Assembly: GCA_030599585.1 (NCBI GenBank)
Contig: JAUVNS010000004.1
Span: 32,001 to 96,000, forward strand
Source: Promethearchaeota archaeon
GTDB lineage: Archaea; Asgardarchaeota; Lokiarchaeia; Sigyniarchaeales; SOKP01
DNA length: 64,000 nt
Direction: 5' to 3'
The notes beneath the pieces are model-generated. The model did not search any database, was not told the origin of the DNA, and was given only the letters and a program-made list of their open reading frames with translations. This document shows positions 8,733 to 62,939 of this stretch, one piece after another (position 1 is the stretch's first letter; each line of letters starts with the position of its first letter). The position numbers were made by a program, and so were the translations under genes.

Positions 8733-9143
8733 ATGGCTAAGAAGAAGAGTAGCAAAAGTAGTAGTAATGATAACAAAAAATGTGCAAATTGTGGTAAACT
8801 CGTTAAGTCCTATTCCTATGGGTATTACTGTAGCTCATGTGCAGAAGAAATTTGGGATCGGGGTTTTGACTCAACAACACAGCATGCCGAGGAGTTATAT
8901 GAACAAGACTTGAAAGAAAATAAGGAGATCAATAAAAAAATCAATAAAGGCAATATTAGTTATAATATCGTTCGAAATTTGATCGGATATAAGTCAGGAA
9001 CTTTTCGCTGTTCAAAATGTAATAAATTAAGACTGGAATGGATTCATTTCCCTAATTCACCCATCAAAGACGAGAAACTTCGATTATTGCTTAAAACACC
9101 CTGTCGTAAATGTAAGGTGGTGGGTTTTTTAAATTTTTCTTGA
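8733..9143 (+). CDS. Small Zn-finger protein (four CxxC pairs)
   Basis: CANC/CSSC and CSKC/CRKC; AAGGAGG SD-like motif upstream. Confidence 0.65.
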   Translation: MAKKKSSKSSSNDNKKCANCGKLVKSYSYGYYCSSCAEEIWDRGFDSTTQHAEELYEQDLKENKEINKKINKGNISYNIVRNLIGYKSGTFRCSKCNKLRLEWIHFPNSPIKDEKLRLLLKTPCRKCKVVGFLNFS

Positions 9144-9401
9144 AGCTTTACTCCGTTGAGAAACTTGATGACTATGAACAGCGCAACTTATACAGTAATA
9201 TTTTTTCGTACTTGCAGACATAATAATCGTCCCAGTCTTCTTTAATTCGCTGAACATGCGCCCGTCAACCAAATTGGTTCGTTGCGTTACTGCCTTAGCC
9301 TTACTCCGTGGAACCCTTCGTCCACATTTACTGCATTGAACCGTCTTATAACTTCCCTTACTTGAGCCGGTTTTACCGCCACTTCTTCTCTTCTTAGGAA
9401 T
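9129..9401 (-). CDS. rps26e: Ribosomal protein S26e (eS26), ATT start; absent from ORF track
   Basis: Translates (M)PKKRRSGGKTGSSKG...VQCSKCGRRVPRSKA...YYCISCAVH; in-frame TGA three codons upstream of the ATT. Confidence 0.95.
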   Translation of the reverse strand: MPKKRRSGGKTGSSKGSYKTVQCSKCGRRVPRSKAKAVTQRTNLVDGRMFSELKKTGTIIMSASTKKYYCISCAVHSHQVSQRSKASRKI

Positions 9402-9537
9402 TAATAATCAGCTTTTTTCTATAAGTAATTGTGTTCTATTTCTAAGACTTTGAATAATGCAAACCTTAAAAAATTTTTCTTCCCTTAGGAGCTTAGCAAG
9501 TATTAATTCTCTTAGGGTTTTCTTTCAAAAAAAGTAG

Positions 9538-10221
9538 TTATTTTTTATCGTGCGTTTCAATCTTACTTATTTCTTTAAAAGAAAATACTAATCTTTGTGC
9601 TATTGTCAAAATTAGTAGTCCTGTAAAGATTATCGTGAATATCGGGAAAAAAAGTTCGAAAGGAGCTCCATAAAATAGGTTGGATAAGAAAAAAATCCAA
9701 AATTCTGCAATAAAGGCAAACCATAAAATGATTAATCTTTCAGCTCTTTCCATAAAGCCCACGCCTTTCATCACAATTCCCTCATTTTCCGCTCTGGAGC
9801 GAATATAAGAAATCATAATAATTAAGAATAGTATCGTATATCCAATTATATAATTAAAATATCCCCCTATTATTAATCCAAAGACTATAATGGCATCAGA
9901 AAGGCGATCTAAGTTCGAATCTAAAAATGCTCCTGAATTGGAAATTTTCTGAGTCATCCGGGCTACTTCTCCATCGAACACATCAAAAGCACCCGCCCAA
10001 AACATAAAAAATGGGACGATCCAAGCTATAGGAAAGGGAAAATGTAACCCTCCTAATGAGAGTAAAATAGCAACCGCTATTGAACAGAAGAAGCCACTAA
10101 ATGAAAGTATATTTGGAGTAAATCCCCATTTAACTAACATTTTAGCCGGGAGCTCGACAAATATTTCTAAAATTCTTCTCTGATTGCTCCTTTTATCAGT
10201 GGCTTGTTCAATTTTGCTCAA
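9538..10221 (-). CDS. pgsA: CDP-alcohol phosphatidyltransferase (archaetidylinositol-phosphate synthase-like)
   Basis: DVFDGEVAR...GAFLDSNLDRLSD signature; SYIRSRAE; GFMERAER. Confidence 0.9.
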   Translation of the reverse strand: MSKIEQATDKRSNQRRILEIFVELPAKMLVKWGFTPNILSFSGFFCSIAVAILLSLGGLHFPFPIAWIVPFFMFWAGAFDVFDGEVARMTQKISNSGAFLDSNLDRLSDAIIVFGLIIGGYFNYIIGYTILFLIIMISYIRSRAENEGIVMKGVGFMERAERLIILWFAFIAEFWIFFLSNLFYGAPFELFFPIFTIIFTGLLILTIAQRLVFSFKEISKIETHDKK

Positions 10222-10285
10222 TATTTAATCCTAATTATGTTTTGACGATAATACAATTTAAAAGTACTCTAAAATAAAAAATTTA

Positions 10286-10885
10286 TCATACTAATAATTG
10301 CAGATTTATTTTAATTAATCGAATCGTAGAAGATGCTAAATATGAGCGATTTCCAAGACTTATCTCTACCAAATTCAACTTTTTCAATTCTTTATCGTTT
10401 AGAAGATCACCACTTTGATCTCCTAGAATAAACAGCAAATTATCCTTTGAACTCAGTTCCTCAAAAATTTCTTTAAAATCCATTCCATCCTCATTTAATA
10501 CAAATGCTTTATATTTTTTTTCGACGAAATTTTTAATAGCGTCAATAATATCTAATTTTGAGTATTTTATTGAGTCTAATGGCGTTTCAGGATGCTTTTC
10601 TTCTTTTTTCGTTTTTTTGATAAATTCTACAAAGAAATCCGTTAGAAGAATTTCGTTTTTTGGGAAACTTTCATCATTGAACAGATCAGAGTCAAAGACA
10701 AACGTTCCATACTTATCCAGAAAAATCCATATTTGAATATTTTTTTCAAGATCTGTGTCAATTGTAAGCGCTGATAAAATACATCTTGAGATTACGTCAA
10801 GTCTTCCAGATGATCCGGGGATATCTTTAATCGTATACCTGCTAATGTTAGCTGTAGAAGATTTTATGAAGAAAATTAAGTTCAT
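10286..10885 (-). CDS. trmY: tRNA (pseudouridine54-N1)-methyltransferase (SPOUT)
   Basis: DIPGSSGRLDVISRC, FILGDQSG, ISLG..SYLAS. Confidence 0.85.
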   Translation of the reverse strand: MNLIFFIKSSTANISRYTIKDIPGSSGRLDVISRCILSALTIDTDLEKNIQIWIFLDKYGTFVFDSDLFNDESFPKNEILLTDFFVEFIKKTKKEEKHPETPLDSIKYSKLDIIDAIKNFVEKKYKAFVLNEDGMDFKEIFEELSSKDNLLFILGDQSGDLLNDKELKKLNLVEISLGNRSYLASSTIRLIKINLQLLV

Positions 10886-10994
10886 TAATTTAAGATGAAA
10901 CTATTTGATTTAAATTGGTATTATAAACCTGAGAGTATACCATATGAATAAATTTTTTGTTTTTCAGAAGTGAAGTCTCCTCTGAAATTACAGT

Positions 10995-11303
10995 TTATTC
11001 TAATTTTTTTTTCTTAAAGCGTGTAATTAGATAAAATGTGCCCATCAATACTGTTATTGAAAGAACAACGCCGACGATTCCAGCAACATAATCGTTAGTA
11101 ATCCAACTTAAGAAAGGAATCCAGGGAGAAAACAAATTTTCAAGCCATTCTTCACCATAATAATCTATTAAAACTCTTTCTAACCCATCAGGATTTTCAG
11201 AGAGAAATCCAATTGTAAAACCTACCGCTATAACAGACATTAGAGCAATGACTATTATTAAAATTGTGATTAAAGGCCATTTATTTCTTTTTATTATGCT
11301 CAT
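10995..11303 (-). CDS. PDGLE-domain Co/Ni ECF accessory membrane protein (CbiN/NikN-like)
   Basis: SENPDGLE motif between two TM helices, directly downstream of cbiM. Confidence 0.85.
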   Translation of the reverse strand: MSIIKRNKWPLITILIIVIALMSVIAVGFTIGFLSENPDGLERVLIDYYGEEWLENLFSPWIPFLSWITNDYVAGIVGVVLSITVLMGTFYLITRFKKKKLE

Positions 11304-11305
11304 TT

Positions 11306-11977
11306 TTATTTCACCTTCAGTATTGATTCAGTTGTAATAAAATCAGGCTTAGTTTTATAAATATAAAACACAATAAGAGCAGAGATTATTGCTTCACCAA
11401 TTCCTATTAGGATATGCCAAAAAACCATAGCCGGAACTGCAATTTCAATTGGAATTGTGCCACTAATACCAATTTCAATGCCACATATGAAAGAAGCTAA
11501 CACTATCGATATATAAGATCCAATAGCGGTTGCGATTGTAACTTTTAATTCCTTTTTCAGTGATGTTTTATTAAAAAGCCTTACAAGCAACAACACTATA
11601 TAGAATCCTACAATACCACATATTATCCCCATATTAAAGGCATTCGGCCCTAAAGCAGTAATTCCTCCGTCCCCAAAAAGGCTTTGAATAACTAAGATTA
11701 AAAACAATACAATAACGGACGCCCAAGGACCAAGTATAATGGCTACTAGAGTACCTCCAACCAAATGGCCAGAAGTTCCTCCTGGAACAGGGTAATTAAC
11801 AAATTGAAACGCAAAAATAATTGCTGCCAATACTCCAATGTAGGGGATCATCTTTTCAGAATCTTCTTTTTCAAACATTTTGCCCATTCTAAAATATCCT
11901 AGAATCATAATCGCAATTGTAACAACCCAGAGCACGATAGTTGTTATAGGGTCTAATAATCCATCAGGTAGATGCAT
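11306..11977 (-). CDS. cbiM: Co/Ni ECF transporter S component
   Basis: N-terminal MHLPDG, GTSGHLVGG, GDGGITALG. Confidence 0.93.
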   Translation of the reverse strand: MHLPDGLLDPITTIVLWVVTIAIMILGYFRMGKMFEKEDSEKMIPYIGVLAAIIFAFQFVNYPVPGGTSGHLVGGTLVAIILGPWASVIVLFLILVIQSLFGDGGITALGPNAFNMGIICGIVGFYIVLLLVRLFNKTSLKKELKVTIATAIGSYISIVLASFICGIEIGISGTIPIEIAVPAMVFWHILIGIGEAIISALIVFYIYKTKPDFITTESILKVK

Positions 11978-12175
11978 TTTTTCTTTACCAATATTTTATT
12001 ATCGATTAATTTTTTTGGTATGAATAATATTTTATCATAATTTAGTATTATTTATAAACGATATGATAATTTTATAATTTAATATGAAGTATCAATTTGG
12101 AGCCATTTGAGTTTCATAGAAGGAATATTCTAATGAGTTTCGTTAAATAATAGAAAGCTAAGGAGATAAAATAAA

Positions 12176-12979
12176 TTGGATATAGAATTACCTTTCAAAC
12201 ATGAAGATGAGAAAAATTTCTTAAATAAGATTCATCCTTTAATTCGATTCATTCTTCCGTTTATCTTAGTTGTACCCTTTCTTATTATAAACGATGTTTA
12301 TTTAGTAATTACGATTATTATTTTTGTTATATTTTTCAATTTAGTGTTTCGCCTACATCTATTAAATATTTTTTCAAAACTTAAAGCGTTAATTCCATTT
12401 ATACTTCTTATTACAATTTTTGTTCCTTTTTATGTTGGAAACACCGTACTCTTTCAATTAAACATTGGAATTCCACTAAATATTTATGTGGAAGGATTAG
12501 CTTATGCCTTAACTCTATTTTTTCGAATTATTGGGGCGGCGTTTGTATTCTTAACCTTTCTAACATCTTTAACTTATTCTGAATTTATTGAAGCATTAAC
12601 TAAATTAAGAGCAATTCCCTCATTTTTTGTAGGTAGTATTATTATCATGCTTCATTACATCCCAATTCTCGCAAAATCTAATAAAAAAGTACTAGAAGCA
12701 CAGGATTTAAGAGGAAAAAACTTTACATCGTATTGGCAAAGGCTTAAAACTCACGGGTTCATAATGGGAAAGAATGTAGTACACAATATGGAAAGAAGCG
12801 AAAAACTATACGAGAGTTTAAAAATGAGGGGATTTTCTGGTAAAATTACCTTTTCTTCAAAGAAGGTAAAATTAGCGGATATACTAATAGTAATGATATT
12901 TGTGTTTATTATGATTTCATTCATCTATTTTATCAATCTAGAACAGATATACATGGGGGTTTTTCAATTATTAGTCTAA
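12176..12979 (+). CDS. cbiQ: ECF transporter T component
   Basis: TM helices, AQDLRG and SLKMRGF conserved Arg motifs. Confidence 0.9.
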   Translation: MDIELPFKHEDEKNFLNKIHPLIRFILPFILVVPFLIINDVYLVITIIIFVIFFNLVFRLHLLNIFSKLKALIPFILLITIFVPFYVGNTVLFQLNIGIPLNIYVEGLAYALTLFFRIIGAAFVFLTFLTSLTYSEFIEALTKLRAIPSFFVGSIIIMLHYIPILAKSNKKVLEAQDLRGKNFTSYWQRLKTHGFIMGKNVVHNMERSEKLYESLKMRGFSGKITFSSKKVKLADILIVMIFVFIMISFIYFINLEQIYMGVFQLLV

Positions 12980-13719
12980 TAGAAGTGGAAAAAATAAATT
13001 TTGAGTACAATTCAAGTTTTTCTCTTAACGATTTATCTTTAACCATAAAAGAAAATTCGATCTACGCTTTAACAGGGAATAACGGGTCTGGTAAAACTAC
13101 GTTTCTCAGGTTATTAGTTGGTTTACTAAAACCTAAATCTGGAACTATTAAAATTTTCAACGAACTCCTGACTAGAGATAAACAACAACTCTGGAGACTT
13201 AGACAAAAAATCGGATTTTTATTCCAAAACCCAGATGATCAATTATTTGCCCCAACTATAGGAGAGGATGTAGGTTTTGGAGCAAGAAATCTTGGACTTG
13301 AAGAGCCTGAAGTGAACAAGAGAGTTGAATGGGCGCTCGAAGCTGTTAATTTATCGCAATATACTAAAAGTTCTCCGTACGATTTATCCTGGGGACAGAA
13401 AAAACGAGCTGCTTTAGCAGGACTATTAGTAATGAAGCCTAAACTATTAATATTAGACGAACCCTTCGCAAATCTTGATTTTAAATCAATTTATAACCAC
13501 CTACAAATTTTTAAAACCCTTAAAAAAGAGCAAAAGATGACAATTTTATTTACTACTCACAATCTTTTTTTTATAGAACATTGGGCAGATAAAATGCTTG
13601 TATTAAACGATGGAAGGGCTATATTTGAAGGTCTTCCTAAGGATGGATTAAACCTTCCCAAAATCAAGCAATTATTGGGGTCGTATAACGAACTCTTAAC
13701 TCTTATCAACCAAAAGTAA
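12970..13719 (+). CDS. cbiO: ECF transporter ATPase (probable ATT start at 12970; track uses GTG 12985)
   Basis: GNNGSGKT, FQNPDDQLF, LSWGQKKR, LDEP; upstream in-frame (M)SLIEVE gives the usual ABC N-terminus. Confidence 0.92.
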   Translation: MSLIEVEKINFEYNSSFSLNDLSLTIKENSIYALTGNNGSGKTTFLRLLVGLLKPKSGTIKIFNELLTRDKQQLWRLRQKIGFLFQNPDDQLFAPTIGEDVGFGARNLGLEEPEVNKRVEWALEAVNLSQYTKSSPYDLSWGQKKRAALAGLLVMKPKLLILDEPFANLDFKSIYNHLQIFKTLKKEQKMTILFTTHNLFFIEHWADKMLVLNDGRAIFEGLPKDGLNLPKIKQLLGSYNELLTLINQK

Positions 13720-13798
13720 TTTAGTTTTCCACTAAAATTGAATAAATTTTTTAATTTGTTCTTTTTATTATTACTTGGGAAAAACGATGATGGAACAT

Positions 13799-14073
13799 TA
13801 GCATATTCGAGGACGTTTATGATAACCCGTGATTAAACGTGCAAAATAACTGCTTACATCCTAAGTTTATTAATCAAAACTTACTGCGTCAAAAATGGGC
13901 TCTTAATCAAGCTTTGGTATAACCTTGCGATGAGATTGGAGTCAGACCCAGCACGCAGATAGATTATGCCCCAAAAAGGCAAAGAAATTACCGCCTAACA
14001 CGAGAGAATATATTTGATGTTTATGGTATGACCATAAGATGATAAATATGTGTTAGTGTTTTAGGCAACAATA
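13799..14073 (+). ncRNA. Putative three-hairpin H/ACA pseudouridylation guide sRNA
   Basis: Three hairpins, each with basal stem, internal pocket, upper stem, K-turn/K-loop-like motif and 3' ACA/ANA (13856, 13959-63, 14068); followed by a T-run at 14082-14088. Confidence 0.75.
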
Positions 14074-14137
14074 CTTGCTGATTTTTTTGCCCCTTTTCTT
14101 TTAAGATATGATTCTGAGCCTCAGAGACCTCACGGGT

Positions 14138-14617
14138 CTATAAAAGACTTATCGAATCTGAGCTGAATAGCTCTTTTAATTCTTTATTCATTTCGCTTTG
14201 ATCTTCTTGTTGAAGATAGTTATTAAGAACCGAAGCAATTTTTTGTGAGTATTTGTTCATGATTGCTCTCACGAGTCCTATTTGAATATTTTTATCGGTT
14301 GCAATACATAAGATACCCTTCCCGACTTTTAGCGAAAAGATCATCCCTTTAAAATATTCAGTTATTTGTAAATGTATCTTTCCATACCCTAAGATATATC
14401 CTTGTTCCTCGCCAGCCGTAAATACAGCTCCTCCAATCGCACCTATTTTTTCAACAGAAATGTCTTCTTCGGTAGGAGACTTTAATATGAATTTTGATTC
14501 GCTCATTATAGTTATCCCCGTATCATCTATGATTATAGCATATTTCAAGCCGGGCGTGCTATGAATAATTTCCTTAAGTATTTTCTTTAATATGCGTTCA
14601 TCATTAGAATAACTCAA
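14138..14617 (-). CDS. Roadblock/LC7 domain protein
   Basis: PGLKYAIIIDDTGITI...IGAIGGAVF...QIGLVR roadblock pattern. Confidence 0.85.
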   Translation of the reverse strand: MSYSNDERILKKILKEIIHSTPGLKYAIIIDDTGITIMSESKFILKSPTEEDISVEKIGAIGGAVFTAGEEQGYILGYGKIHLQITEYFKGMIFSLKVGKGILCIATDKNIQIGLVRAIMNKYSQKIASVLNNYLQQEDQSEMNKELKELFSSDSISLL

Positions 14618-14782
14618 TAACCTTCAATACACCTTCTTTTTGAGCGATAATTCTTTTTCTTGAGTGCGTTTTTTATTTTAAAAAGAATTTATTTAAAGTA
14701 AACTCACTCACTTTAATATAAAAATAAAAATTAATCTATAAAAACTTAATTCACTCGAAATAGTTTTATGTTGCGCAACGAA

Positions 14783-15193
14783 TTAAAATAACTCTTGCGA
14801 CCTAATCAAAGTTTTTAAGGGTTTTACTCTGTTTTTATTATTTTTCGATTTTTCGAGTAAAATAAATAGTTTAAAGTTTTTCCCTTTGTCTATATCGAAT
14901 TTTAATTGGACCAGATTTGGATCATTTATTACTTCTTTATTCTCCTTATTCTTCGAGATTGCCCACAATGCTAATTTGTTCTCGTGAATCCAAAGCCGTT
15001 TTGAGATATTTGCGCCTATTGTAAATCCATTTCTATCAGTGATAACGCCCGCAACAAAGTTAGGAAAGTTTATTTTAATCTTATGTAAAAAATAATTAAC
15101 TTCCATTTGATTTATCAATCTAACATTTTCCTGTTTCATACCAAATAACCTATCAAAATCAATTGATTTATAGATAAAAAGTGAAAAAAACAA
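14783..15193 (-). CDS. Hypothetical, degenerate roadblock-like protein
   Basis: PNFVAGVITDRNGFTI resembles roadblock N-terminal strands; real start may be the ATG of MKQEN. Confidence 0.5.
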   Translation of the reverse strand: MFFSLFIYKSIDFDRLFGMKQENVRLINQMEVNYFLHKIKINFPNFVAGVITDRNGFTIGANISKRLWIHENKLALWAISKNKENKEVINDPNLVQLKFDIDKGKNFKLFILLEKSKNNKNRVKPLKTLIRSQELF

Positions 15194-15304
15194 TTGAAAA
15201 AAACGTGTGATATCACGATATCATTCATGTTCAATTAAAAACAATTCACAAAGAAAAATCGCAATTAGTCAAAAGAAAAAGGGTCCTTCTTGGTATTACA
15301 TATT

Positions 15305-16276
15305 TTATCTTTCTTTTCCTTTAATTCCCAGATCCAGATTCTCTACTAACTCGTTAAACCTATTACGAACCGTTACCTCTGTGACTTGAGACGTCTTAGC
15401 TATTGCGCGTTGCGTCCTCCTCTCCTTAGTTATGATGCTCGCGGCATAAATAGCTGCGGCACACACTCCAGTTGGACCACGTCCAGAGGTAAGACCTCTT
15501 AGTTCAGCCATCTTGATTACTTTTTTTGCTATCTTCAGACACTCAGTGGACAATTCAAGTTCTGAAACAAAGCGAGTAAGAAAATCTAAGGGTTTAGTGG
15601 GATTTAAGTTTAGTTCTAACTCCTTTGAGATAAATCGATAAGATCGCCCTATCTCTTTTTTGTTAACACGAGCAACTTCAGCAATTTCATTTAAAGTGCG
15701 TGGTACTTTATACATTCTGCATGCAGCATATAAACTTGCAGCCGCAACTCCTTCGATACTTCTCCCCCGAATTAAGTGAGCTTCAACTGCATCTCTATAA
15801 ATCTTAGCTGAACACTCGCGGAGGTTTTTCTGAAGATCGAGACTTGACGACATTCTATCTAACTCACTTAACGCAAAGGTTAAGTTTCTTTCGGTGGCAT
15901 CTGAAACTCTAATTCGGGATTGCCACTTTCGCAAACGATATATCTGTCCTCTGATTTTGGCTGAGATCTCTTTACCAAAGATATCTTTGTTCTTCCAATC
16001 AATCATAGTGCTCAAGCCTTTGTCGTGGATCATCAACGTCATAGGAGCACCAGTTCTTGTTCTTTTCTTTCTTTGATCTGAGTCAAAAGCACGCCATTCT
16101 GGACCTTGGTCTATGTGTTTTTCAGAGTGAACTAATCCACATTTTTCACAAACTAATAAGCCTCTATTTGCATCAAATAAAATATTTTTACCGCATTCAG
16201 TACAATTATCTTGACTTAACACTGTATTTTTTTCTACGGTTGCATCGCTATGATTCCAACTTGAAATAAATAACAC
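15305..16276 (-). CDS. tfb: Transcription initiation factor B
   Basis: CxxC...CxxCG Zn ribbon, [11 protein letters not shown]-reader, two cyclin repeats ([13 protein letters not shown]). Confidence 0.97.
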
Positions 16277-16313
16277 CTATTAATATCTTTTTATAATGGA
16301 AATTAGAGAAAAC

Positions 16314-16565
16314 TTATCTCATTTTAGCATAAAAATTGTCATTCGGGTTAAATTCCTTCTTTGGAGAAATTTTCATCGAAATGAATGGTAGTTCTTCTGG
16401 ACCAAAGATCTCTACAATTTTTCCTATCTCGTCAAATTCTTCAGTAAAAACGGGTCTATTAGTTATTTTTTCTAAACTTTTGTTCCACTTTGTCGTTCTA
16501 AAAATCTGATGTTTTTTCGATTTTCCGAGATAGAACAGATTTAATTTATTATATTTTTGCGTAAC
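16314..16565 (-). CDS. gar1: H/ACA RNP protein Gar1 (no canonical start; start position uncertain); absent from ORF track
   Basis: Translates ...VFTEEFDEIGKIVEIFGPEELPFISMK... (Gar1/Naf1 core); gar1 upstream of tfb is a conserved archaeal arrangement; in-frame TAA at 16590-16592. Confidence 0.85.
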   Translation of the reverse strand, partial: VTQKYNKLNLFYLGKSKKHQIFRTTKWNKSLEKITNRPVFTEEFDEIGKIVEIFGPEELPFISMKISPKKEFNPNDNFYAKMR

Positions 16566-20024: not shown

Positions 20025-20612
20025 TTAACAAGGTTCAACTTTATAATCTCCTCGTTTATACATTTCAAATAAGATTTCAGCTTCATGAATTGCGTCATCC
20101 ACTGCTCTATGTTTTTCAATATAGCTCGTATTAGGGAATATATTATCCCAGGCTTCTTGCATTTTTGGATTTTTATAACCTCCTCTTGAACGCATAATTT
20201 TACATACCTCTTTAGCAACTGCCATAATATCTGGGATATCCTTTTTTATAATAAAGCCTCTAGATTCCATATATCCAAAATCAAATGCTGTGTTATACGC
20301 AGTTAATGAATATTGATCTAAAATTTCTTGAATTTGTTTTTTAACATGGTTTAAACTAGGTGCGTCCTCAATATCTTCGAATTTCAAATCAGAGTTATTG
20401 AAAATCCAAGCGTTTCTGTGCGATTCTCCAAAAGGTAATTCTTTTACCAACGAATCAAATAATATTCGAGTTGTTCCAGTTACTAAATCAAGCTCAACAA
20501 TACCTATCTCAATTATACACCCTTCTTTTTTGATTTTAGTTGTTTCTATATCAATAACAGCAATTTTTTTAGAATTAGGCTTTTTAACAAAGTCATTAAT
20601 ATCTCGAAAAAT
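20025..20612 (-). CDS. DEDDh 3'-5' exonuclease (probable ATT start at 20612)
   Basis: ExoI IAVIDIETT lies upstream of the track's start; also AYNTAFD and HRAVDDA; GGAGGAG 6 nt before the ATT. Confidence 0.88.
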   Translation of the reverse strand: MFRDINDFVKKPNSKKIAVIDIETTKIKKEGCIIEIGIVELDLVTGTTRILFDSLVKELPFGESHRNAWIFNNSDLKFEDIEDAPSLNHVKKQIQEILDQYSLTAYNTAFDFGYMESRGFIIKKDIPDIMAVAKEVCKIMRSRGGYKNPKMQEAWDNIFPNTSYIEKHRAVDDAIHEAEILFEMYKRGDYKVEPC

Positions 20613-32084: not shown

Positions 32085-32321
32085 TTACTCAATCATCTTT
32101 AGAAAATCAAGCTCATTGATAAAAGTTACACCAAGATTTCGGGCTCTATTAAACTTATCAGAGCTTGCATTTGGATTATTTGTAACTAAATACCACAAAT
32201 CGTTAGATATTTCGTCCCTAATGAGTCCTCCTTTTTCAAGGACCCTTTTTTTTGCTTCGTCTCTATTAATTTCTTTTAGATCTTTTGAAAAATAAAATTT
32301 AATTAAAGATAAATCAGCGAT
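32085..32321 (-). CDS. Stand-alone BRCT-domain protein (ATC start); absent from ORF track
   Basis: Translates ...NRDEAKKRVLEKGGLIRDEISNDLWYLVTN...SSDKFNRARNLGVTFINELDFLKMIE, a LigA/RFC-type BRCT pattern; AGGTGA SD 6 nt upstream, whose TGA is an in-frame stop. Confidence 0.8.
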   Translation of the reverse strand: MADLSLIKFYFSKDLKEINRDEAKKRVLEKGGLIRDEISNDLWYLVTNNPNASSDKFNRARNLGVTFINELDFLKMIE

Positions 32322-33453: not shown

Positions 33454-33876
33454 TTACTTTCTTAAAATTCCATAGGCGGTTCTTTCTAGAAGGCTAGTTC
33501 CTTCTGGTGTAACTATTTTACCCGCCCTGTCTTGCTTCATTATTAAATTAGCTTTCTCTAACTGCTGCAATGCTACTCGTATGATCTTTCCGCTCCCTTT
33601 AGCGCTGTGGTGTCGACCTGGACCTTTTCTATTTTTTCCTCCGTAGTATTTTCTGAGTTTATTTACCCCAACCGGACCAAATTTCTTTATCTTTCTTAAA
33701 AGTGAGGCACACCTAATATACCAGAAATTCTCGTGATCGATAGGAGCTAATTCCTTAAAAAATGCAGTCTTCCAAAATTCGGATCCCTCGGGTGGGCTAA
33801 TTTCGGGAAATTCTCTTAATTTTTCTGCTAAGATTTTAATAAGCTTCTCTGGTTCAACGATATATATGCTAATTAT
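33454..33876 (-). CDS. rps19e: Ribosomal protein S19e (eS19), probable ATA start; absent from ORF track
   Basis: Translates (M)ISIYIVEPEKLI...FWYIRCASLLRKI...GPVGVNKLRKYYGG...GSGKIIRVALQQLE; in-frame TAA at 33892-33894. Confidence 0.95.
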   Translation of the reverse strand: MISIYIVEPEKLIKILAEKLREFPEISPPEGSEFWKTAFFKELAPIDHENFWYIRCASLLRKIKKFGPVGVNKLRKYYGGKNRKGPGRHHSAKGSGKIIRVALQQLEKANLIMKQDRAGKIVTPEGTSLLERTAYGILRK

Positions 33877-51279: not shown

Positions 51280-51310
51280 CTAGTTTTTGAATAAGTCGTC
51301 AAAAAACTGT

Positions 51311-52717: not shown

Positions 52718-52950
52718 TTTTTTAACCTTTAATATCAATTATGTAAAACCTGCACTTTTTATTATTGTCGAAAAACTGACAAAATTATTCAAATCGAAGC
52801 CAGAATCGCCAAAGGCTAATAAAAATTTTATGATGTTTGTAGAGAAAACGATTAAAGGTTTTTATATCAAAATATCTTATCTATATTCATAATTTAATTT
52901 AATACTGAATCAAAAAAAGAAATTAAAATTTAAAAAGAGGTTTAACAATA

Positions 52951-53385
52951 ATGGTTGATAAAGCATTATTAAAAGAAATTAAAGCAGCAATGGATGCTGG
53001 CGCTGCCGCGTCTGATGTGAAAGACACTCTAAAGGTTTACGAGCTCTTCAAGCAAGTAGCTGAAGAGAACGAAGACTTAAAAGAGGAATTAGAAGACATG
53101 GATATCACCATCCAGATGAATATAACTGACGCCGATGCTAAGTTTTGGTTAAAAGCTCACGACGGTACTTTGGAATTTGGTGAGGGAGATGTTGAAAATC
53201 CATCGTTTACATTCTCTGCCACGAAAGAAATCGGTGCTGGAATGTTATTTGGCGAAGTTGACGCCACTAGCGCTTATATGGCCGGTGACATCACTGTAGA
53301 AGGTAATTTACAAGACGCTATGGCATTTCAGGAGATTATTGAACTTGCCTTAGAAGCTCTTGAAGATATGTTTGAAGAACTATAA
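52951..53385 (+). CDS. Acidic SCP2 domain protein, paralog 1
   Basis: GEVDATSAYMAGDITVEGNLQDA. Confidence 0.9.
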   Translation: MVDKALLKEIKAAMDAGAAASDVKDTLKVYELFKQVAEENEDLKEELEDMDITIQMNITDADAKFWLKAHDGTLEFGEGDVENPSFTFSATKEIGAGMLFGEVDATSAYMAGDITVEGNLQDAMAFQEIIELALEALEDMFEEL

Positions 53386-53677
53386 AAATCCAACATTTCC
53401 TTCAATCTTATACCAAAATCTACTTTTTCTTTTATATTTTTTTTTTTTTTCCTACTATGTGTTAACTTAAAATTGGCAAATTTACCCTTTGAAATGCGAC
53501 AAATTTTGTAAACTAATTCTGTGCTAAACTGCTATACATTCGGATTTCGCACTATAAATAATAAGAGAAATAAAACCTTTTTATATAGTAAAGAGTTATA
53601 CATTATAGTATTTGTTTAATCGATCAAAATCATAAATAAAATACTAAACCAAAAAAGTAAAAAAAAGGTTAAAAATC

Positions 53678-54112
53678 ATGGTTGATGAAGCATTAATAAA
53701 AGAAATGAAAGGAAAATTTGACGCCGGAGCAGCTGCCTCGGACGTAATGGATTCGTTAAAAGTATTCGAGTTATTCAAACAGATTGCTGTAGAGAACGAA
53801 GACTTGAAGGAAGAGTTAGAAGACATGGATATTACGATCCAAATGTTAATTACGGACGAAGATAAAAAGTTTTGGTTAAAGGCAAAAGAAGGTACTCTAG
53901 AATACGGCGAAGGTGACGTAGAAAATCCATCGTTCACATTCTCCGCTACAAAAGAAGTAGGTTCTGGTATGTTATTCGGCGAAGTTGACGCAACTAGCGC
54001 TTACATGGCTGGTGACATTACCGTTGAAGGTAATCTTCAAGATGCAATGGCCTTTCAAGAGATTATTGAATTAGCTTTAGAAGCGTACGAAGATTTAGCT
54101 GAAGATTTATAA
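53678..54112 (+). CDS. Acidic SCP2 domain protein, paralog 2 (tandem duplicate)
   Basis: Same length (144 aa) and largely identical to 52951-53385. Confidence 0.9.
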   Translation: MVDEALIKEMKGKFDAGAAASDVMDSLKVFELFKQIAVENEDLKEELEDMDITIQMLITDEDKKFWLKAKEGTLEYGEGDVENPSFTFSATKEVGSGMLFGEVDATSAYMAGDITVEGNLQDAMAFQEIIELALEAYEDLAEDL

Positions 54113-55456: not shown

Positions 55457-55564
55457 TTTATTGTTATGAACAGTTACAATATACTAATTGAAATTAGAAT
55501 TAAATTAATTTACACTCTATAAAAATAAATGATAAAAAGAATAAAAAAAAATTGCTTGTATTTA

Positions 55565-57283
55565 TTAAAGAACGGTAAACCATAGATAGAAGAGGAAAGC
55601 GCCGATTATAAAGAACAGTACTGCTGAAATGTAAGTCATGTGCTTTGAATAATTACGGAAGCTTTTACCAGATTCTGTCCAAATTTTATCTACTTGAAAG
55701 TATGGGTTTGGACCTCGTCTGTACCACCCTTGAATTCTTACTTTTTGTCCTACTAATTGATCTGCTCTCCTGAGTGCCCACCAGAAATCCATAAGCCTAA
55801 ACCCAAATCGGTAATCGATGTACATTAAGCCAGTATTGTCTTGAAAGTATAAGTCTTCCGACAACCAATATCCTGCTATACCTTTCCCTACGATTACACC
55901 TTCAATAATGGATGGTTTGGGACGTACTGGAGATACATTTATTGTAGTAATTAATTCTACGACGTTGTTAGGCTCAAATCCGCTCCGGTACATAAAAGAT
56001 GTTCTACCAATAACACCAATTCCCATAACGAAAAATCCGATAGCCCACAGAAGGATTATGTTATTTATTGTAGTTAAAGTTCCAATGGGCAAAAAACCTA
56101 AAAATCCGAATATCCATACAGCTGAAAAGGCGATTAATATTACAAATACTATGGTCGGCAATTTGCTTACGAAAAGATCGGTTATAAATTCACCCGCCAT
56201 TGATTTGCCTTCCTGATATTCTTTGATTTTTCTTGCTTCGGAGAAATCGTATTCAATAGGAACTCCATATGTTGCACATTGTTCGTTTAATCGTTGAATT
56301 CTTTTTGCAGGTAATGGAAGTGTGCTGAAAGTTTGGAAGTATTTCGCCCATGGATTAAAGAGATCCCATCCTGCTGCTGCTTCAACTGCGTATTTTGATA
56401 ATTTACCGTTGCTATCCATAGTTTGGACAGCTAAATCTCTAGCCTTCTTTGGATCAAAAATCCCTAAACCTCGTAGTCCTCTCATACTAGATTTTTGTTT
56501 CTCCTTAATTTCAGCTTCAGTGCCGCTTGCGAGCAGACCGTAAGCGATTTTGATGAGCGCAGTTGATAAATAATTTGGATTTTCGGTTAATTCCGCGGCA
56601 TGTTGATCAGCGAAATATTCACGAATTCGACTCACGACCAGTGATATTAAGTAGCCGATGTAATAAGATATGTAAGAAACTACAGCTACAACAATTAAAG
56701 CTATAGCAATATAACTTCCTGCGTCGTCGTCTTTAGAGCGTCTAAAACCTGAAAAACGTACAGCATAGAAAGACCACCTTGCTATCGTTAACAATATTAA
56801 AGGAATTGCAAATACTACCGTCATTAAAATGAAATCATTATGTACGATGTGACCTAACTCGTGAGCTACCACTGCTCTTTGCTCGTTCTCGTCTAAGTAA
56901 TGAAAGATGCCATCCGTAATTACTATTTTTGCGGTATTCTTAGACCACCCATATGAAAAAGTTTGAGGGTTAAAGTCGTGAATTATTCCCATTCTTGGGG
57001 GTTTAATTTCCCTGATTGCCACAACCTTGTCTACTGCGTCAGCTAAATGAGGGTATTTATATGTGAAATCCTCATACTCCATCCATTCGATTCTATACAT
57101 CCAATTAATAAATACAGGACCCATACCATATTGAAATAAAACTATTAGAATCGTTAAAGCAATCATTATTAACAATCCAAAAAGATTGCCTGGTAAAAAC
57201 CAAACTCCGATAGTAAAAACTACTGCATAGATAAGTGCAAATAGAAACATTATTGCAAGGGTAGATGCTAATTTTAATCCCAT
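55565..57283 (-). CDS. HtpX-like M48 metalloprotease with C-terminal TM + OB-fold-like extension
   Basis: AHELGH, SRIREYFAD, LSTALIKI; about 200 extra C-terminal residues. Confidence 0.88.
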   Translation of the reverse strand: MGLKLASTLAIMFLFALIYAVVFTIGVWFLPGNLFGLLIMIALTILIVLFQYGMGPVFINWMYRIEWMEYEDFTYKYPHLADAVDKVVAIREIKPPRMGIIHDFNPQTFSYGWSKNTAKIVITDGIFHYLDENEQRAVVAHELGHIVHNDFILMTVVFAIPLILLTIARWSFYAVRFSGFRRSKDDDAGSYIAIALIVVAVVSYISYYIGYLISLVVSRIREYFADQHAAELTENPNYLSTALIKIAYGLLASGTEAEIKEKQKSSMRGLRGLGIFDPKKARDLAVQTMDSNGKLSKYAVEAAAGWDLFNPWAKYFQTFSTLPLPAKRIQRLNEQCATYGVPIEYDFSEARKIKEYQEGKSMAGEFITDLFVSKLPTIVFVILIAFSAVWIFGFLGFLPIGTLTTINNIILLWAIGFFVMGIGVIGRTSFMYRSGFEPNNVVELITTINVSPVRPKPSIIEGVIVGKGIAGYWLSEDLYFQDNTGLMYIDYRFGFRLMDFWWALRRADQLVGQKVRIQGWYRRGPNPYFQVDKIWTESGKSFRNYSKHMTYISAVLFFIIGAFLFYLWFTVL

Positions 57284-57487
57284 TTTTAATCTCTCAATGT
57301 TTAGTTAATATTTTTAAAATTTTTGATAGGTTTTCTAATTGTTAAATTACATGCAGTTCTTAATAAATAATTTTATCTATTAGAATTTGAAAGTGCTGCA
57401 TTTTTGGACAGATTTCGAAAAGAATAAAATAGATTATTTTATTGTTACTTCAACTAAATTTTCAATTATCGTTTAGGTGGTTCTACT

Positions 57488-58123
57488 ATAGATGCTAAGC
57501 TGAAGCTTTTATGCGAAGCAACCGACAATCTTATAAAACAACAGTTTTATCAGAGCGGTAACGATGTTATCGTAGGGAGAACGCCAGAAATTTCAATCAA
57601 AATAAAGAACTCGGGTCAAATTATTAAGAAATATGAGAATATATTTAACGAAAACCTTCATTATTTCTTAGAGGGTCAATACATGGATTTTTTTAAGCCT
57701 TTTATGAAAATAAAAGGAATAGATGAGAATCACATACGCGAAATATATCAAGACATTCAAATTAAACTGGCGGCAATGCATGGTACCGAATTTGATGTTG
57801 TACTTATGTATACCATCGTCGTTAGTTCATTGACAACAAGTATCCGAGAGATTCAGTTTAATTATTCACTCCAAGATATTATTGTGAGAGCGAAGAAACA
57901 TTCTGCTAACTTGAGTAAAAAACAAATTCAGGGCGAATTAGAAAAACTTTTTATGCGTAATAATAAAAATGTGTCGATATTGTACAACTTATCCTATATT
58001 GATGCTTTAGCAGAGTCATTTAACTATTTAAAAACAGCTCGTATCTGTAAAATTCAAAAGAGTAAATATATTAACCGTATTGTGGATATAATAGTGAAAT
58101 CAAACGATAAAATCTCTAAATAG
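57488..58123 (+). CDS. Hypothetical protein (probable ATA start at 57488; track uses ATG 57683)
   Basis: Frame open for 65 codons upstream of the ATG; AGGTGG 7 nt before the ATA. Confidence 0.6.
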   Translation: MDAKLKLLCEATDNLIKQQFYQSGNDVIVGRTPEISIKIKNSGQIIKKYENIFNENLHYFLEGQYMDFFKPFMKIKGIDENHIREIYQDIQIKLAAMHGTEFDVVLMYTIVVSSLTTSIREIQFNYSLQDIIVRAKKHSANLSKKQIQGELEKLFMRNNKNVSILYNLSYIDALAESFNYLKTARICKIQKSKYINRIVDIIVKSNDKISK

Positions 58124-58138
58124 AATAGGTGTCAATAT

Positions 58139-58993
58139 ATTCTAATTACGGAATTCCATCAATTTTATAAAAAGAAAGGATTAAACCAAGAAGTCGTAAA
58201 AACGTTTCAATCTTTTATTTTTGCATATTTCAAGCAATCCGGACGAGACTTTCCTTTTAGGAAAGACATTACTCCTTATAATGTGCTTGTTTCAGAAATG
58301 ATGCTGCAACAAACTCAAACTAATAGGGTCAGCGAAAAATTCCAAGAATTCATTAAGAAATTTCCTGATTTTAAGACACTGGATAATGCGCCTCTTAACG
58401 AAATTCTCCAACTTTGGCAAGGGTTAGGCTATAATCGTAGAGCTGTCGCTCTCAAAAAGATAGCTGAAAAGGTAGTGAACGAATTTGATTGTATATTACC
58501 TGCTGATGTTGAAATATTGAAATCGTTTCCTCAAATTGGTCATAATACAGCCTCTTCAATAGTTGCTTTTGCGTTTAATTTACCTACCTTTTTTATTGAG
58601 GTAAATATCAGACGCGTTTATATTTATTTCTTTTTTCCTGGTAAATCTTTAATTAATGACAAAGATATCATGCCACTTGTACGAAAAACACTAGAACTTT
58701 CTAATGTGCGTAATTGGTATTATGCTCTTATGGATTACGGAGTTATGCTAAAAAAAACACATCCCGAATTGAACAAAAGGAGCGCCCATTATCGAAAACA
58801 GTCAAAGTTTAAAGGATCGAACAGGGAATTAAGGGGTAAGATTTTAAAGCTCATAATCGAAAGAAAACTTTTAACCGAAGCTGAGATTCTTAAGTATTTG
58901 CGTAGTGAACCTAAAAAAGTAGGATTAATATTAAATCAATTAACACAAGAAGGTTTCATTAATCGTAATGAGGATGGATATTTCATAGCTTAA
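58139..58993 (+). CDS. mutY: MutY-like HhH-GPD adenine glycosylase (probable ATT start at 58139)
   Basis: Upstream in-frame FQ...GRDFPFRKDITPYNVLVSEMMLQQT; WQGLGYNRRA; QSKFKGSNRELRG; in-frame TAG at 58121. Confidence 0.85.
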   Translation: MLITEFHQFYKKKGLNQEVVKTFQSFIFAYFKQSGRDFPFRKDITPYNVLVSEMMLQQTQTNRVSEKFQEFIKKFPDFKTLDNAPLNEILQLWQGLGYNRRAVALKKIAEKVVNEFDCILPADVEILKSFPQIGHNTASSIVAFAFNLPTFFIEVNIRRVYIYFFFPGKSLINDKDIMPLVRKTLELSNVRNWYYALMDYGVMLKKTHPELNKRSAHYRKQSKFKGSNRELRGKILKLIIERKLLTEAEILKYLRSEPKKVGLILNQLTQEGFINRNEDGYFIA

Positions 58994-60276
58994 TTCATTT
59001 TCTTTAAGTATTTAGAAATTTCCTTTGCGAGTTTTTCTTGTTTCTTCCATTCACCATAAGCTAGGCCTTGTGAACTTAATTTTGAAATTGTTTTTATTAT
59101 TTTCTCGTCAACATCTTTAACATCTTCGTAGGCAAATTTTGTAAGTGGCAAAGGCATGAATGTGTGGGAATGAATTTTTGCTCCCAAGTCCGATATTTTA
59201 TACATAAAATCTATAGTAAGATCGATATCTTCTTCTGTTTCATTTGGTAGGTTGAAAATAAAATCTACATTTGGGGTAAGTCCTGCTTCTAATGTTAATT
59301 TAACTGCATTATAGACATCATTAGTGGAGTGACCTCTGTTGCATGAATTTAATACCTTTTGACTTCCAGATTGGGCTCCTAATACGATATTATCGTTGGA
59401 GGCATATTTTAGTACTAATCCTAACGATTCTTTTGTTACATGCTCGGGACGAACTTCTGACGGGAAGGATCCAAGGTAAATCTTTCCTTTCGGTTTTATT
59501 ATATTTGTTATTTCGATCAGCAAATTTTCTAAAAGAGGTAATTTAAGTGATTTCCCATCAGGTGAGCCGTAAGAAAACGCATTTGGAGTTATAAATCTAA
59601 TATCTGTTTTACCGTAAGTTTTCATGAAACTAACTGCACTACAAATTGATTTGATACTTCTATGTCTGGGGCGCGTCCCTAAAAGATAAGGCGTTTGACA
59701 AAAATAGCAAGCAAAAGGACATCCTCTCGTTATTTCAATAGCTCCAAATTTTACATTTTTGATCGGAAGAGGAGGATACTTATCCAGATCGATCCATCTT
59801 CTCTTTTTTGATGTAATTAAAATTTTATCTTTATTAAAATAAGCGATACCCCTAATTGCATCAAAATTTTTATTATTTTTAACATTACAAAGAATCTCAA
59901 TTAATGTTTCTTCTCCTTCCCCTACTACAACTATATCAAATCCCATTTTAAGAGTTCCTTTTGGATCCCCAGTTGGATGTGGCCCTCCTGCAATAAATAA
60001 AACTCTTTCTTTATATTTAGCTCGTAATAGTTGAAGTAAATCATTAATTTCCCATAATTGTGTTGTGAAAAAGGAGATGCCTAACACTACTTTTTGGTGA
60101 TTTTCACAAATTCTTTCCAATTCTTTATCCAGATTCTCAGAACCCCTAACAAAGTATAGCTTAACATCTTCCAATTCTTCCACTGTTTCTAATGCTCCTA
60201 TTAAAGCATTGAAACTGTAAATATTTTTTTTTTGATAAAAGACAACAAATGCTATTTTTTTACTCAAAGCTAACAC
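58990..60276 (-). CDS. B12-binding domain radical SAM protein (TIGR04013-like)
   Basis: AGGPHPTG, GEGE, EITRGCPFACYFCQT, GSFPSEVRP. Confidence 0.9.
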   Translation of the reverse strand: MLALSKKIAFVVFYQKKNIYSFNALIGALETVEELEDVKLYFVRGSENLDKELERICENHQKVVLGISFFTTQLWEINDLLQLLRAKYKERVLFIAGGPHPTGDPKGTLKMGFDIVVVGEGEETLIEILCNVKNNKNFDAIRGIAYFNKDKILITSKKRRWIDLDKYPPLPIKNVKFGAIEITRGCPFACYFCQTPYLLGTRPRHRSIKSICSAVSFMKTYGKTDIRFITPNAFSYGSPDGKSLKLPLLENLLIEITNIIKPKGKIYLGSFPSEVRPEHVTKESLGLVLKYASNDNIVLGAQSGSQKVLNSCNRGHSTNDVYNAVKLTLEAGLTPNVDFIFNLPNETEEDIDLTIDFMYKISDLGAKIHSHTFMPLPLTKFAYEDVKDVDEKIIKTISKLSSQGLAYGEWKKQEKLAKEISKYLKKMN

Positions 60277-60378
60277 ATAATAATATGATACTTGATTTTA
60301 TATTTAGAATAAAGAATCTATCATAAAATAAAATTATATTACATAACCAGACTAATAAAAATTAAAAGTGAGTACAAT

Positions 60379-60828
60379 ATGCTTTTTGTAGATATATTTG
60401 CTACAGATCCATCCATGGTTGGGATTGCGTGGTTCGATTTTTATTCAATCGGACACCTCTGCTTTGGAATTGGTGTGTTCCTTTTTTTTAGCTTGTTTTA
60501 TACTATCCCTAAACACAAGGGTAAAACACCCATATTTTCTCTACTCTTTGTTTTCATCTTAACTTTGGGGATTTTAATCCTATGGGAAGTTTTAGAACAT
60601 TTCTTATTTATGGATCTCGGTTGGAAGTTCGAAGGTCGCGCCGATAGTTGGCAAAATATTACAACCGATCTAATAATAGGGACTTTTGGTGGTATAGTAT
60701 CGTGGATCTTTTGCCATGAAGTCTTTGTAAAGGACAAAAATATTTGGTCTTACTACATTTTCGGTATTTTAGGATTTACAGTGTGGCTTGTCGTGTTTAT
60801 GATACTACGCGCTCTTATAATAACATAA
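60379..60828 (+). CDS. Small membrane protein
   Basis: FDFYSIGH...WEVLE...DSWQNITTD, four TM helices. Confidence 0.75.
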   Translation: MLFVDIFATDPSMVGIAWFDFYSIGHLCFGIGVFLFFSLFYTIPKHKGKTPIFSLLFVFILTLGILILWEVLEHFLFMDLGWKFEGRADSWQNITTDLIIGTFGGIVSWIFCHEVFVKDKNIWSYYIFGILGFTVWLVVFMILRALIIT

Positions 60829-60877
60829 TAAACCTAAACCTATTTTTTTATATTTTATTTCTTTTTTTATTATAATA

Positions 60878-61660
60878 ATGGTATTCGAAAAAGATAAAAC
60901 ATTAAATCATGATATTTATATCGAATATTGTCAAGGCTCTATCCCTCTCATCATTTCAGTACCTCACGGTGGTTCTCTCATGATTGAAGAAATTCCTGAC
61001 AGAGTTGAAGGGATTCACGGAGTGGATAGAAATACGGTGAACATAGCTTGTTCTTTAAGAAAAAAAATTAGTAAACTTTTCAGTCTAAATCAAGAGAATA
61101 CGAAGGTTCCATCTTACATTATTTCTAAAGTACATAGAATTAAAATTGATTTTAATAGGAAAGAATCCAAAGCGTTTAATAAAGGATCAACTACGGCTAA
61201 AATATTATATCATTCCTACCATAAAACATTATTAAACTTAATCTCCTACAATTTAGACAAGTTTAACAGGTCATTATTAGTAGATATTCATGGGTTTGAA
61301 AAAAAAAAGAGACCTATTGGATTAAGAGATGTAGAACTAGTTTTAGGGACAAGCAATTTTAAATCAATGTTTTCGCCTGTTTTACCAAAAAAAGACTGGG
61401 GTAATAATCTTCGTGGGAATATTATAAAGAAGTTTAATGAATTAAACATCGCAATCGCACCTGGCCATCCCAGAAGGAGAGAATATGTTTTAACGGGAGG
61501 ATATACCATTACCAATTATGGAGCAAGGCAAATAAAAAATAGTCAAACAATTCAGATAGAGTTTTCAGATAAAATTCGCCTTGAAGACGATATTTTGAAA
61601 GAAACGGTATTAGATGTTTTGGCTCAACTACTCTACAATGAATGTACCATTGCAAAATAA
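60878..61660 (+). CDS. N-formylglutamate amidohydrolase-like protein
   Basis: PLIISVPHGG, HRIKIDFNR, LVDIHG, GGYTI..YG, IQIEF. Confidence 0.8.
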   Translation: MVFEKDKTLNHDIYIEYCQGSIPLIISVPHGGSLMIEEIPDRVEGIHGVDRNTVNIACSLRKKISKLFSLNQENTKVPSYIISKVHRIKIDFNRKESKAFNKGSTTAKILYHSYHKTLLNLISYNLDKFNRSLLVDIHGFEKKKRPIGLRDVELVLGTSNFKSMFSPVLPKKDWGNNLRGNIIKKFNELNIAIAPGHPRRREYVLTGGYTITNYGARQIKNSQTIQIEFSDKIRLEDDILKETVLDVLAQLLYNECTIAK

Positions 61661-61803
61661 GCGATATTAATAAAAAAAAATCCCAATCAATTCCTTGAAA
61701 TAATTATTTTTTCCAAACTAAAAACAGTATTTTGATGAATTATAAATAATAAAACTCTTTCTAGGTTATATAAAAATTAACTCCATCATTTTGGCTTATT
61801 TTT

Positions 61804-62139
61804 ATGAGTGATGATAAGATTGACATTAGCGATTTAGAATCGTTTATCAACGGTTTAAAAACGTCTCTAGATATGCTTGATGGAGCGGATCCATCTCAAT
61901 CAAAAGGTTTTCAAGCTTCCTTAGCTAAAACGATCTCTGCTTTAAGGATAAAAAGAACTGAAAAATTTGAACCATTACCTAAAATTTTGGGTAATGTAAC
62001 TAAAGAAGATATAAAGAATTACTTGTTAAAGGAATTAGAACAACTAACAGACTATTTAGATAATCAAAAATATCCTAAGGGTAAATTTGCTTTAGTGAAA
62101 AAAATCGTTCACTTAAGAGCTGAAATAAATCGAATGTAA
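61804..62139 (+). CDS. Hypothetical protein
   Basis: 111-aa helical ORF. Confidence 0.65.
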   Translation: MSDDKIDISDLESFINGLKTSLDMLDGADPSQSKGFQASLAKTISALRIKRTEKFEPLPKILGNVTKEDIKNYLLKELEQLTDYLDNQKYPKGKFALVKKIVHLRAEINRM

Positions 62140-62174
62140 AATTTCTTCATTTTTCATTGTAATTTACAATAGAG

Positions 62175-62939
62175 GTGATTTATATTTTAATAGATGTTCA
62201 TTGTCATGCTAATCTTTTCTTAACAATAGATAAAGTTATTGAAGACGCTAAAAAAGTTGGTGTTGAGAAAATTATTGCTGTAGCAATGAGTTCCATAAGC
62301 CAAGAGAGAGTTTTAGGATTAGCCAGTCAATATAATGAGGTTTTTGCCTCATTAGGAATCCATCCTGAAGAAGTCAAAATGAACGAGAAAATAGAACAAC
62401 AATTAGATTCAATAATTGACTTAATTAAACAAAATAAACAAAATATATGTGCGATTGGTGAGATTGGTCTAGATCATCACTTCGTTAAAGATAAAGAGCT
62501 ATATCCTCTTCAAGAGACTATTTTTAACAAAATGCTATTGCTTGCTCAAGATTTGGAACTCCCAGTTAATCTCCACACAAAAGGTGCTGAAAAGATAGTT
62601 TTTGATACCTTACTCTCTTATAAAATCCCCAATGTCAATATTCATTGGTATTCAGGACCCGAGAATTTTTTAAAACTTGGCATGGATAGAGGATATTATT
62701 TCTCAATTACACCAGCAATTAGTTATTCACCAGTCGTGAAGAAAGTCGTTTTAAATGTTGATAAAGAACATCTTCTTTTGGAAAGCGATGGTCCAGTAAA
62801 ATATTCCGGAAAAATTGGTGTTCCGGCAATGGTTAAAAATGTATTAAATTCTATTTCAATGCTAAAAGAAATTAATGCAGTTGAATTAGAAAAACAAATT
62901 GAAGAAAATACGAGAAAGATTTTTCCTAAAATTTTCTAA
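62175..62939 (+). CDS. tatD: TatD-family nuclease/hydrolase (true start possibly ATT 62184)
   Basis: DVHCH, GIHP, AIGEIGLD, HWYSG, LESDGP. Confidence 0.93.
   Translation: MIYILIDVHCHANLFLTIDKVIEDAKKVGVEKIIAVAMSSISQERVLGLASQYNEVFASLGIHPEEVKMNEKIEQQLDSIIDLIKQNKQNICAIGEIGLDHHFVKDKELYPLQETIFNKMLLLAQDLELPVNLHTKGAEKIVFDTLLSYKIPNVNIHWYSGPENFLKLGMDRGYYFSITPAISYSPVVKKVVLNVDKEHLLLESDGPVKYSGKIGVPAMVKNVLNSISMLKEINAVELEKQIEENTRKIFPKIF

Follow-up and report, generated by a model that had tools for sequence, protein, structure and literature searches.

The window analysed here is a 64,000-nucleotide stretch of the genome of a Promethearchaeota archaeon of the Lokiarchaeia (contig JAUVNS010000004.1, positions 32,001 to 96,000 of the forward strand; G000:C40:32001-96000), lying within an assembly of 4.85 Mb (G000; 52 contigs, 32% GC). 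Nine of its roughly 70 genes have a near-cognate start codon that is supported by aligned orthologues (Table 1). Throughout, canonical starts are ATG, GTG and TTG, ATH denotes ATT, ATA or ATC, and SD denotes a Shine-Dalgarno-like motif. The nine frames are intact and conserved and have no canonical start ahead of the conserved N-terminus, with the exception of tatD, in which a GTG lies inside the SD. The original prediction for this window had named eight near-cognate codons together with in-frame stops and SD-like motifs; all of these were located at the positions and on the strands it had assigned, and the gene identities it had proposed agree with the Pfam matches.

Table 1. Genes of the window with a near-cognate start codon supported by aligned orthologues; the last column gives the first in-frame ATG, GTG or TTG in codons from the upstream stop.
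Gene	Coordinates	Strand	Start codon	Upstream context	Pfam	First in-frame ATG/GTG/TTG
rps26e (eS26)	9129..9401	-	ATT 9401	in-frame TGA three codons upstream; weak SD	S26e	
cbiO-like ABC ATPase	12970..13719	+	ATT 12970		ABC_tran	47/291
gar1	16314..16562	-	ACG 16562		Gar1 (E 3e-6, just under cut-off)	71/91
DEDDh exonuclease	20025..20612	-	ATT 20612	behind GGAGGAG	RNase_T	64/205
BRCT-domain gene	32085..32321	-	ATC 32321	behind AGGTGAT	BRCT	43/80
rps19e (eS19)	33454..33873	-	ATT 33873	GGTG SD	S19e	107/145
conserved hypothetical gene (57488 gene)	57488..58123	+	ATA 57488	behind AGGTG		75/221
mutY-like glycosylase	58139..58993	+	ATT 58139	behind AGGTG	HhH-GPD	53/289
tatD	62184..62939	+	ATT 62184	in-frame GTG 62175 inside SD	TatD	

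The near-cognate codons used are mostly ATT, then ATA and ATC, and sometimes ACG or CTG, and relatives swap them for ATG, GTG or TTG. Locus counts given here include close kin and are non-independent, so they are not usable as probabilities. Order-wide, the Met column of rps26e holds ATG (17), TTG (5), GTG (2) or ATT (4) and no other codon, with ATT also in the relatives G011 and G017. The corresponding column of rps19e, read at 68 loci, contains 53 ATG and 15 ATT, and it places the start of the window gene at ATT, one codon after the ATA at 33876 that had been proposed. Both ribosomal protein genes are intact and single copy, with no ATG-started copy elsewhere in the genome. The nearest relatives of rps19e are Promethearchaeota/Promethearchaeia (Loki) records, at up to 95% identity; a look-up of the G038 rps19e protein by identity gave no match. 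Five records titled Nanopelagicaceae, Hodarchaeota or Hermodarchaeota (L226, L240, L272, L274, L279) carry rps19e genes that are 72-91% identical and nested among Loki sequences, and are probably mislabelled or misbinned.

For tatD, 25 family loci show ATG (18), GTG (3), ATT (2) or ATA (2) in the Met column, one further genome (G017) having TTT; the column coincides with the predicted ATT despite the GTG within the SD. The predicted ATT of cbiO is present in 4/4 orthologues, three of which have a stop 2-9 codons upstream, and the proposed ATA of the 57488 gene recurs behind AGGTG in G017, the one orthologue whose start is readable. Orthologues of the DEDDh exonuclease start with ATA (2/2) behind the same SD, those of the BRCT gene carry ATA, ATG or TTG at the start column, and the single mutY orthologue start that was read, in G017, is ATG. 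TTG occupies the start column of gar1 in 5/5 orthologues. This gene had been described as having no canonical start at all; its start is indeed non-canonical, but a late ATG exists at codon 71.

An SD match of at least 5 nt precedes about 14% of ATG starts in G000, a low frequency that agrees with published descriptions of SDs as rare in Loki (PMC7531240, PMC12993045). Near-cognate codons stand at an SD spacing equal to that of ATG starts. In the set chosen by alignment, 14/16 near-cognate starts have an SD of at least 4 nt versus 47/113 ATG starts (p = 8e-4), a comparison that is partly circular. At rps19e, an SD of at least 4 nt is found in 15/15 ATT loci versus 5/53 ATG loci, and two lineages have changed from ATG to ATT with gain of an SD. 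One of these changes falls between the near-identical genomes L242 and L244: the 25 nt immediately upstream of the rps19e start have been replaced, and the SD and ATT arise together. A similar association is seen in tatD, in which an SD of at least 5 nt precedes 4/4 ATH starts versus 3/21 canonical ones, and rps26e follows the trend (4/4 ATT loci versus 13/24 others). AUG/AUU switching is recurrent, with ATT-started rps26e in 4 genera and at least 2 changes on the rps19e tree. The distribution suggests that SDs are retained where the codon is weak. Four rps19e leaders from a sister family in the order (L003, L014, L029, L030) also contain an out-of-frame three-codon ATG mini-open reading frame overlapping the ATT start, which is absent in G028.

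For the genome-wide analysis, about 3,800 G000 genes were called using a codon model. A scan of all genes for SDs is uninformative because ATG-started genes swamp the signal, and the informative scan was restricted to the 222 late-start genes, in which the first canonical codon lies at least 25 codons past the upstream stop. In these genes ATH makes up 45/110 codons (41%) at SD spacing, against a background of 13.6% (p = 1.4e-12). The enriched triplets are ATT, ATC and ACG, with ATA and CTG enriched weakly. SD-like motifs inside genes, used as a control, show no ATH enrichment (9.5% versus 9.9%). The SD-based list comprises 79 candidates in G000, some of which arise by chance. Translational coupling is not clearly enriched among them (15/79 versus 283/2176 ATG starts). 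All 20 aligned orthologue codons of SD-picked candidates are start-capable (9 ATG/GTG/TTG, 11 ATH); for Ile codons just inside genes, by comparison, the orthologue codon is canonical in 1.3% and unrelated in 23%.

A strict orthologue test forced a non-canonical start in 17/380 genes (4.5%) versus 1-2/124 in the control (p = 0.09, not significant alone). This test detects about half of the cases (P = 0.52), because the next canonical codon must be at least 20 codons away. The loose version of the test gave 34 matches, about half of them false, and is noisy for close genomes because leaders are conserved there. From these sequence comparisons we infer that near-cognate starts probably make up about 4-9% of genes across the family. 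Among G000 genes with an ATG-started orthologue, 1/71 has a near-cognate start, an ACG. The claim that this lineage has relaxed its start selection thus stands in so far as near-cognate starts appear real and family-wide; the relaxation is not a blanket one, and it is linked to SDs.

Further candidates were seen elsewhere in G000. The gene for uS4 (G000:C24:248684 -) has an apparent ATC start two codons past a stop and behind AGGTGAT, with its first canonical codon at 45. Others are an SMC-like gene (ACG, C40:110464), a uvrB-like gene (C34:37638), small GTPases and a short gene at C40:116834; the SMC-like, uvrB-like and small GTPase names were assigned by eye from the N-termini.

Genomes were grouped into families, with f1 the organism's own family, f2-f4 the rest of the same order and f5-f28 other Asgard. 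By sequence, near-cognate starts appear to extend through the whole family; further cases are spread over the order, and a few occur in other Asgard. The strict SD test was passed by 42/3,818 genes in G000 and 15/1,210 in family relatives. Elsewhere it was passed by 0/374 genes in the single large control pair (two genomes of the same GC from one other Asgard family), 0/118 in the rest of the order and 2/310 in other families. Single cases beyond the family include rps19e in f2, rps26e in G181 and G182, and rpl3 in G094. In the L3 region, where the genes present are rpl3, rpl4 and rpl23, no near-cognate start was found within the order, all starts being canonical. The rpl3 ATT start belongs to f16 (L090, G094), and a truA-like gene in f17 (L091, G069) may start with ATA.

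The gene for the fidelity factor aIF1 is itself affected. The single aIF1/SUI1 gene of G000 (G000:C3:26021 +; L001:1426-1767) starts with ATT, has a stop four codons upstream and contains no canonical codon before residue 109. In f1, the aIF1 start is ATT or ATC at 28/28 unambiguous loci and is never ATG; at five further loci, where the codon is ATT or ATA, a GTG lies in frame three or four codons before it. The remaining families are mixed, with ATG, GTG, TTG, CTG (f6, f9) and ATA (f11, f16, f17). The zinc knuckle and basic loop of the protein are retained, and its loop W is common to most Asgard. A second, divergent aIF1 copy in G005 and G007 (L032, L035) likewise begins with ATT behind GAGGTG.

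Feedback through aIF1 is plausible, since AUU is rejected in vitro by the aIF1 of S. solfataricus and bacterial IF3 autoregulates via AUU (PMC4705826). By analogy with the IF3 gene infC, the fixed ATH start of aIF1 may give negative feedback that keeps stringency loose for SD-held AUH sites (ATH in the mRNA).

Annotation of aIF1 varies among public records. Ab-initio callers cut the gene short, and 74 of 120 public homologues of G000 aIF1 lack the N-terminal zinc knuckle. Eighteen of the 120 entries begin with Met-Trp, an artefact that arose where the caller chose translation table 4 and read through a TTG-TGA. The one NCBI aIF1 record that we checked places the start at ATT, so the expectation that gene callers miss or truncate such genes applies to ab-initio callers but not to every caller. 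As the near-cognate codons are most likely the true starts, many gene finders would shorten these proteins. NCBI translation table 11 permits ATT, ATC, ATA and CTG as initiators and does not include ACG. The Loki ATH starts are accordingly permitted, as in the NCBI call for aIF1, but their frequency is far above that of usual annotation.

We inspected the initiation machinery of G000 for changes that might account for these starts. Its 16S rRNA retains an intact anti-SD. A1-U72, three G-C pairs and a CAU anticodon are present in the initiator tRNA, whose gene (G000:C3:55185-55309 -) was located by homology, ARAGORN having missed it because it contains a roughly 49-nt intron after position 37. 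The intron after position 37 is also present in G038, while G011 and G016 carry an insert in the variable/T-arm region and G032 one in the D arm (L342-L344), so the position differs between close kin. The 16S P-site motifs and the tails of uS9, uS13 and uS19 show nothing unusual; uS19 (G000:C11) has a long acidic N-terminal extension. In relaxed-fidelity initiation systems, such as those of mitochondria and mycoplasmas, the hallmark is an initiator tRNA that has lost identity elements or a fidelity factor that lacks some of its parts. Neither was seen here, and the initiator tRNA, the anti-SD, the P-site motifs of 16S rRNA and loop 1 of aIF1 showed no lesion, in a check that excluded the aIF2 subunits and tRNA modifications. 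The fidelity-residue changes that the original prediction had proposed to look for were thus not found in the initiator tRNA or aIF1, and with the inspected parts looking ordinary no cause of relaxed fidelity was identified.

We consider it very likely, from the comparison of sequences, that the near-cognate codons are real SD-anchored initiation sites, each being the only possible start, one base off ATG, of an intact gene. Pairing of the mRNA with the intact anti-SD would position the weak codon at the P site and would retain it there long enough for the ordinary CAU initiator tRNA to read it despite a single mismatch, with Met inserted first. A strong codon, or a weak one backed by an SD, would then suffice for a gene to function, two workable states because most ATG-started genes have no strong SD. 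Lineages would shift between the two, with about 4-9% of genes in the second. Such holding by the SD fits a model from P. abyssi in which mRNA carrying an SD is stabilised by aIF1, and aIF1 is released once the start codon pairs (PMC6237735). More tentatively, initiation in Loki-type Asgard may have two modes, with stringency set by an aIF1 that limits itself through its AUH start.

Several observations weigh against these proposals. In G000 the SDs of cbiO and gar1 amount to 3 contiguous consensus bases only. The contrast of the family with other Asgard is modest (57/5028 versus 2/802, p = 0.013) and suggestive only, the DNA being non-independent and unevenly sampled. Among the machinery parts inspected, none is altered so as to account for AUH tolerance. 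Finally, rps19e is still ATT-started in f2 genomes whose aIF1 begins with TTG, so ATT starts elsewhere do not depend on an AUU-aIF1 loop.

Two other readings share the view that these sites are used. A lineage-wide loss of fidelity, the strong form of the original prediction, would follow from a change in a factor, a tRNA modification or a ribosomal component and would let near-cognate codons drift in freely; as the main account it is possible but somewhat doubtful, and it may coexist as a cause. The frequent AUG/AUU switches in rps19e and rps26e speak for it, when set against about 1 such codon per 61,358 annotated AUG starts in prokaryotes (PMC5622118; an annotation-dependent figure), as does the absence of candidates in the same-GC control pair. 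The canonical initiator tRNA, the ordinary 16S motifs and ribosomal protein tails and the conserved elements of aIF1 described above speak against it, and a general loss sits poorly with a near-cognate start in just one of the 71 ATG-anchored genes. Alternatively, the weak codons could be selected, gene-specific regulators, serving autoregulation of aIF1 and lower or stringency-sensitive expression of the other genes. The avoidance of ATG by f1 aIF1 and the recurrence of near-cognate aIF1 starts in five other families are what this would predict, and cbiO, the DEDDh gene and the 57488 gene retain ATH in every orthologue read. We nevertheless regard it as unlikely overall, given that rps19e, rps26e, tatD, BRCT and mutY exchange freely with ATG. 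Outside the order, moreover, near-cognate starts are not significantly commoner in aIF1 than in rpl3 (6/34 versus 1/19 by hand tally, p = 0.4).

The remaining readings deny near-cognate initiation altogether. Translation might begin at an upstream canonical codon and continue by stop readthrough (UGA as selenocysteine or Trp), frameshift or splicing. An in-frame TTG-TGA does lie upstream of aIF1 in several genera, and the 18 Met-Trp entries read it so; the mini-open reading frames of the f2 rps19e leaders likewise speak for this class of readings. Yet the frames are bounded by stops of all three kinds (TGA 33, TAA 32, TAG 14), and in relatives extra TAA or TAG stops intervene between the aIF1 TGA and the ATT. 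Out-of-frame ATGs are no commoner before the candidates (8/79) than before ATG starts (327/2176), and orthologues carry ATG at the exact column. We rejected readthrough and frameshift on these grounds, and consider the whole class very improbable. Less credible still is an origin in assembly error, in pseudogenes or in a recoding that turns ATA/ATT into Met. The genome is a metagenome assembly with a contamination estimate of 8.9%, but the same codons occur in independent assemblies (15 rps19e and 28 aIF1 loci), including the single-contig genomes G038 and G182. The rps19e, rps26e and aIF1 genes are single copy and intact, and error and pseudogenisation were rejected, as the original prediction had anticipated. 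A variant code with AUA or AUU as Met was also rejected: internal ATA, ATT and ATC codons align with Ile in 65-70% of cases and with Met in 1.1-2.2%.

Two unrelated features of the window may be recorded here. A Cys-rich, zinc-ribbon-like open reading frame (8715-9143 +) converges on rps26e, the 3' ends of the two overlapping by 15 nt, and two similar tandem genes (52927-53385 + and 53648-54112 +) are probably paralogues.

Near-cognate starts, SD compensation and autoregulation of fidelity factors are each known separately. Bacterial infC, encoding IF3, has an AUU start with translational autocontrol (Butler 1987, as summarised in PMC4705826). Loki aIF1 resembles it as the gene of a fidelity factor, and functional counterpart of IF3, with an AUU start behind an SD. 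It differs in fold and domain of life, and feedback in Loki is a candidate only; bacterial AUU starts, moreover, are confined to few genes, whereas in Loki they would concern several per cent of genes. Eukaryotic eIF1 is described as autoregulating through a poor-context AUG (as cited in PMC4705826 and PMC6237735). Its orthologue aIF1 likewise has a suboptimal start of its own, but eIF1 uses the context around an AUG in scanning, not a near-cognate codon behind an SD. In prokaryotes, GUG and UUG starts are accompanied by compensatory strengthening of the SD (PMC5622118). The Loki genes similarly combine a weak codon with a stronger SD, with orthologues switching codons, and extend this to AUU, AUA, AUC and ACG, within a genome whose other genes seldom have SDs. 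Within archaea, reviews list only AUG, GUG and UUG as starts (PMC7531240, PMC12993045). Ribosome profiling of Haloferax found alternative near-cognate sites (PMC7261190), and an ATT start behind a ribosome-binding site has been proposed for the tubulin gene atubA of Kariarchaeaceae (PMC13394414). The former are minor alternatives and the latter is a single gene, in contrast to the Loki codons, which would be the sole starts of conserved essential genes across a family. We found no report of near-cognate codons as the sole start of several per cent of genes in an archaeal family in the literature searched, coverage of which was incomplete.

If these starts are used as proposed, ab-initio callers would truncate or overlook about 150-350 proteins per genome, including eS19, eS26, uS4 and aIF1, in a lineage that is being mined for genes bearing on the origin of eukaryotes. 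The retention of SDs at weak codons would bear on the origin of the SD-free, AUG-strict initiation of eukaryotes. A self-limiting aIF1, if true, would complete the parallel between IF3 and eIF1 in the third domain, and in the phylum closest to eukaryotes.

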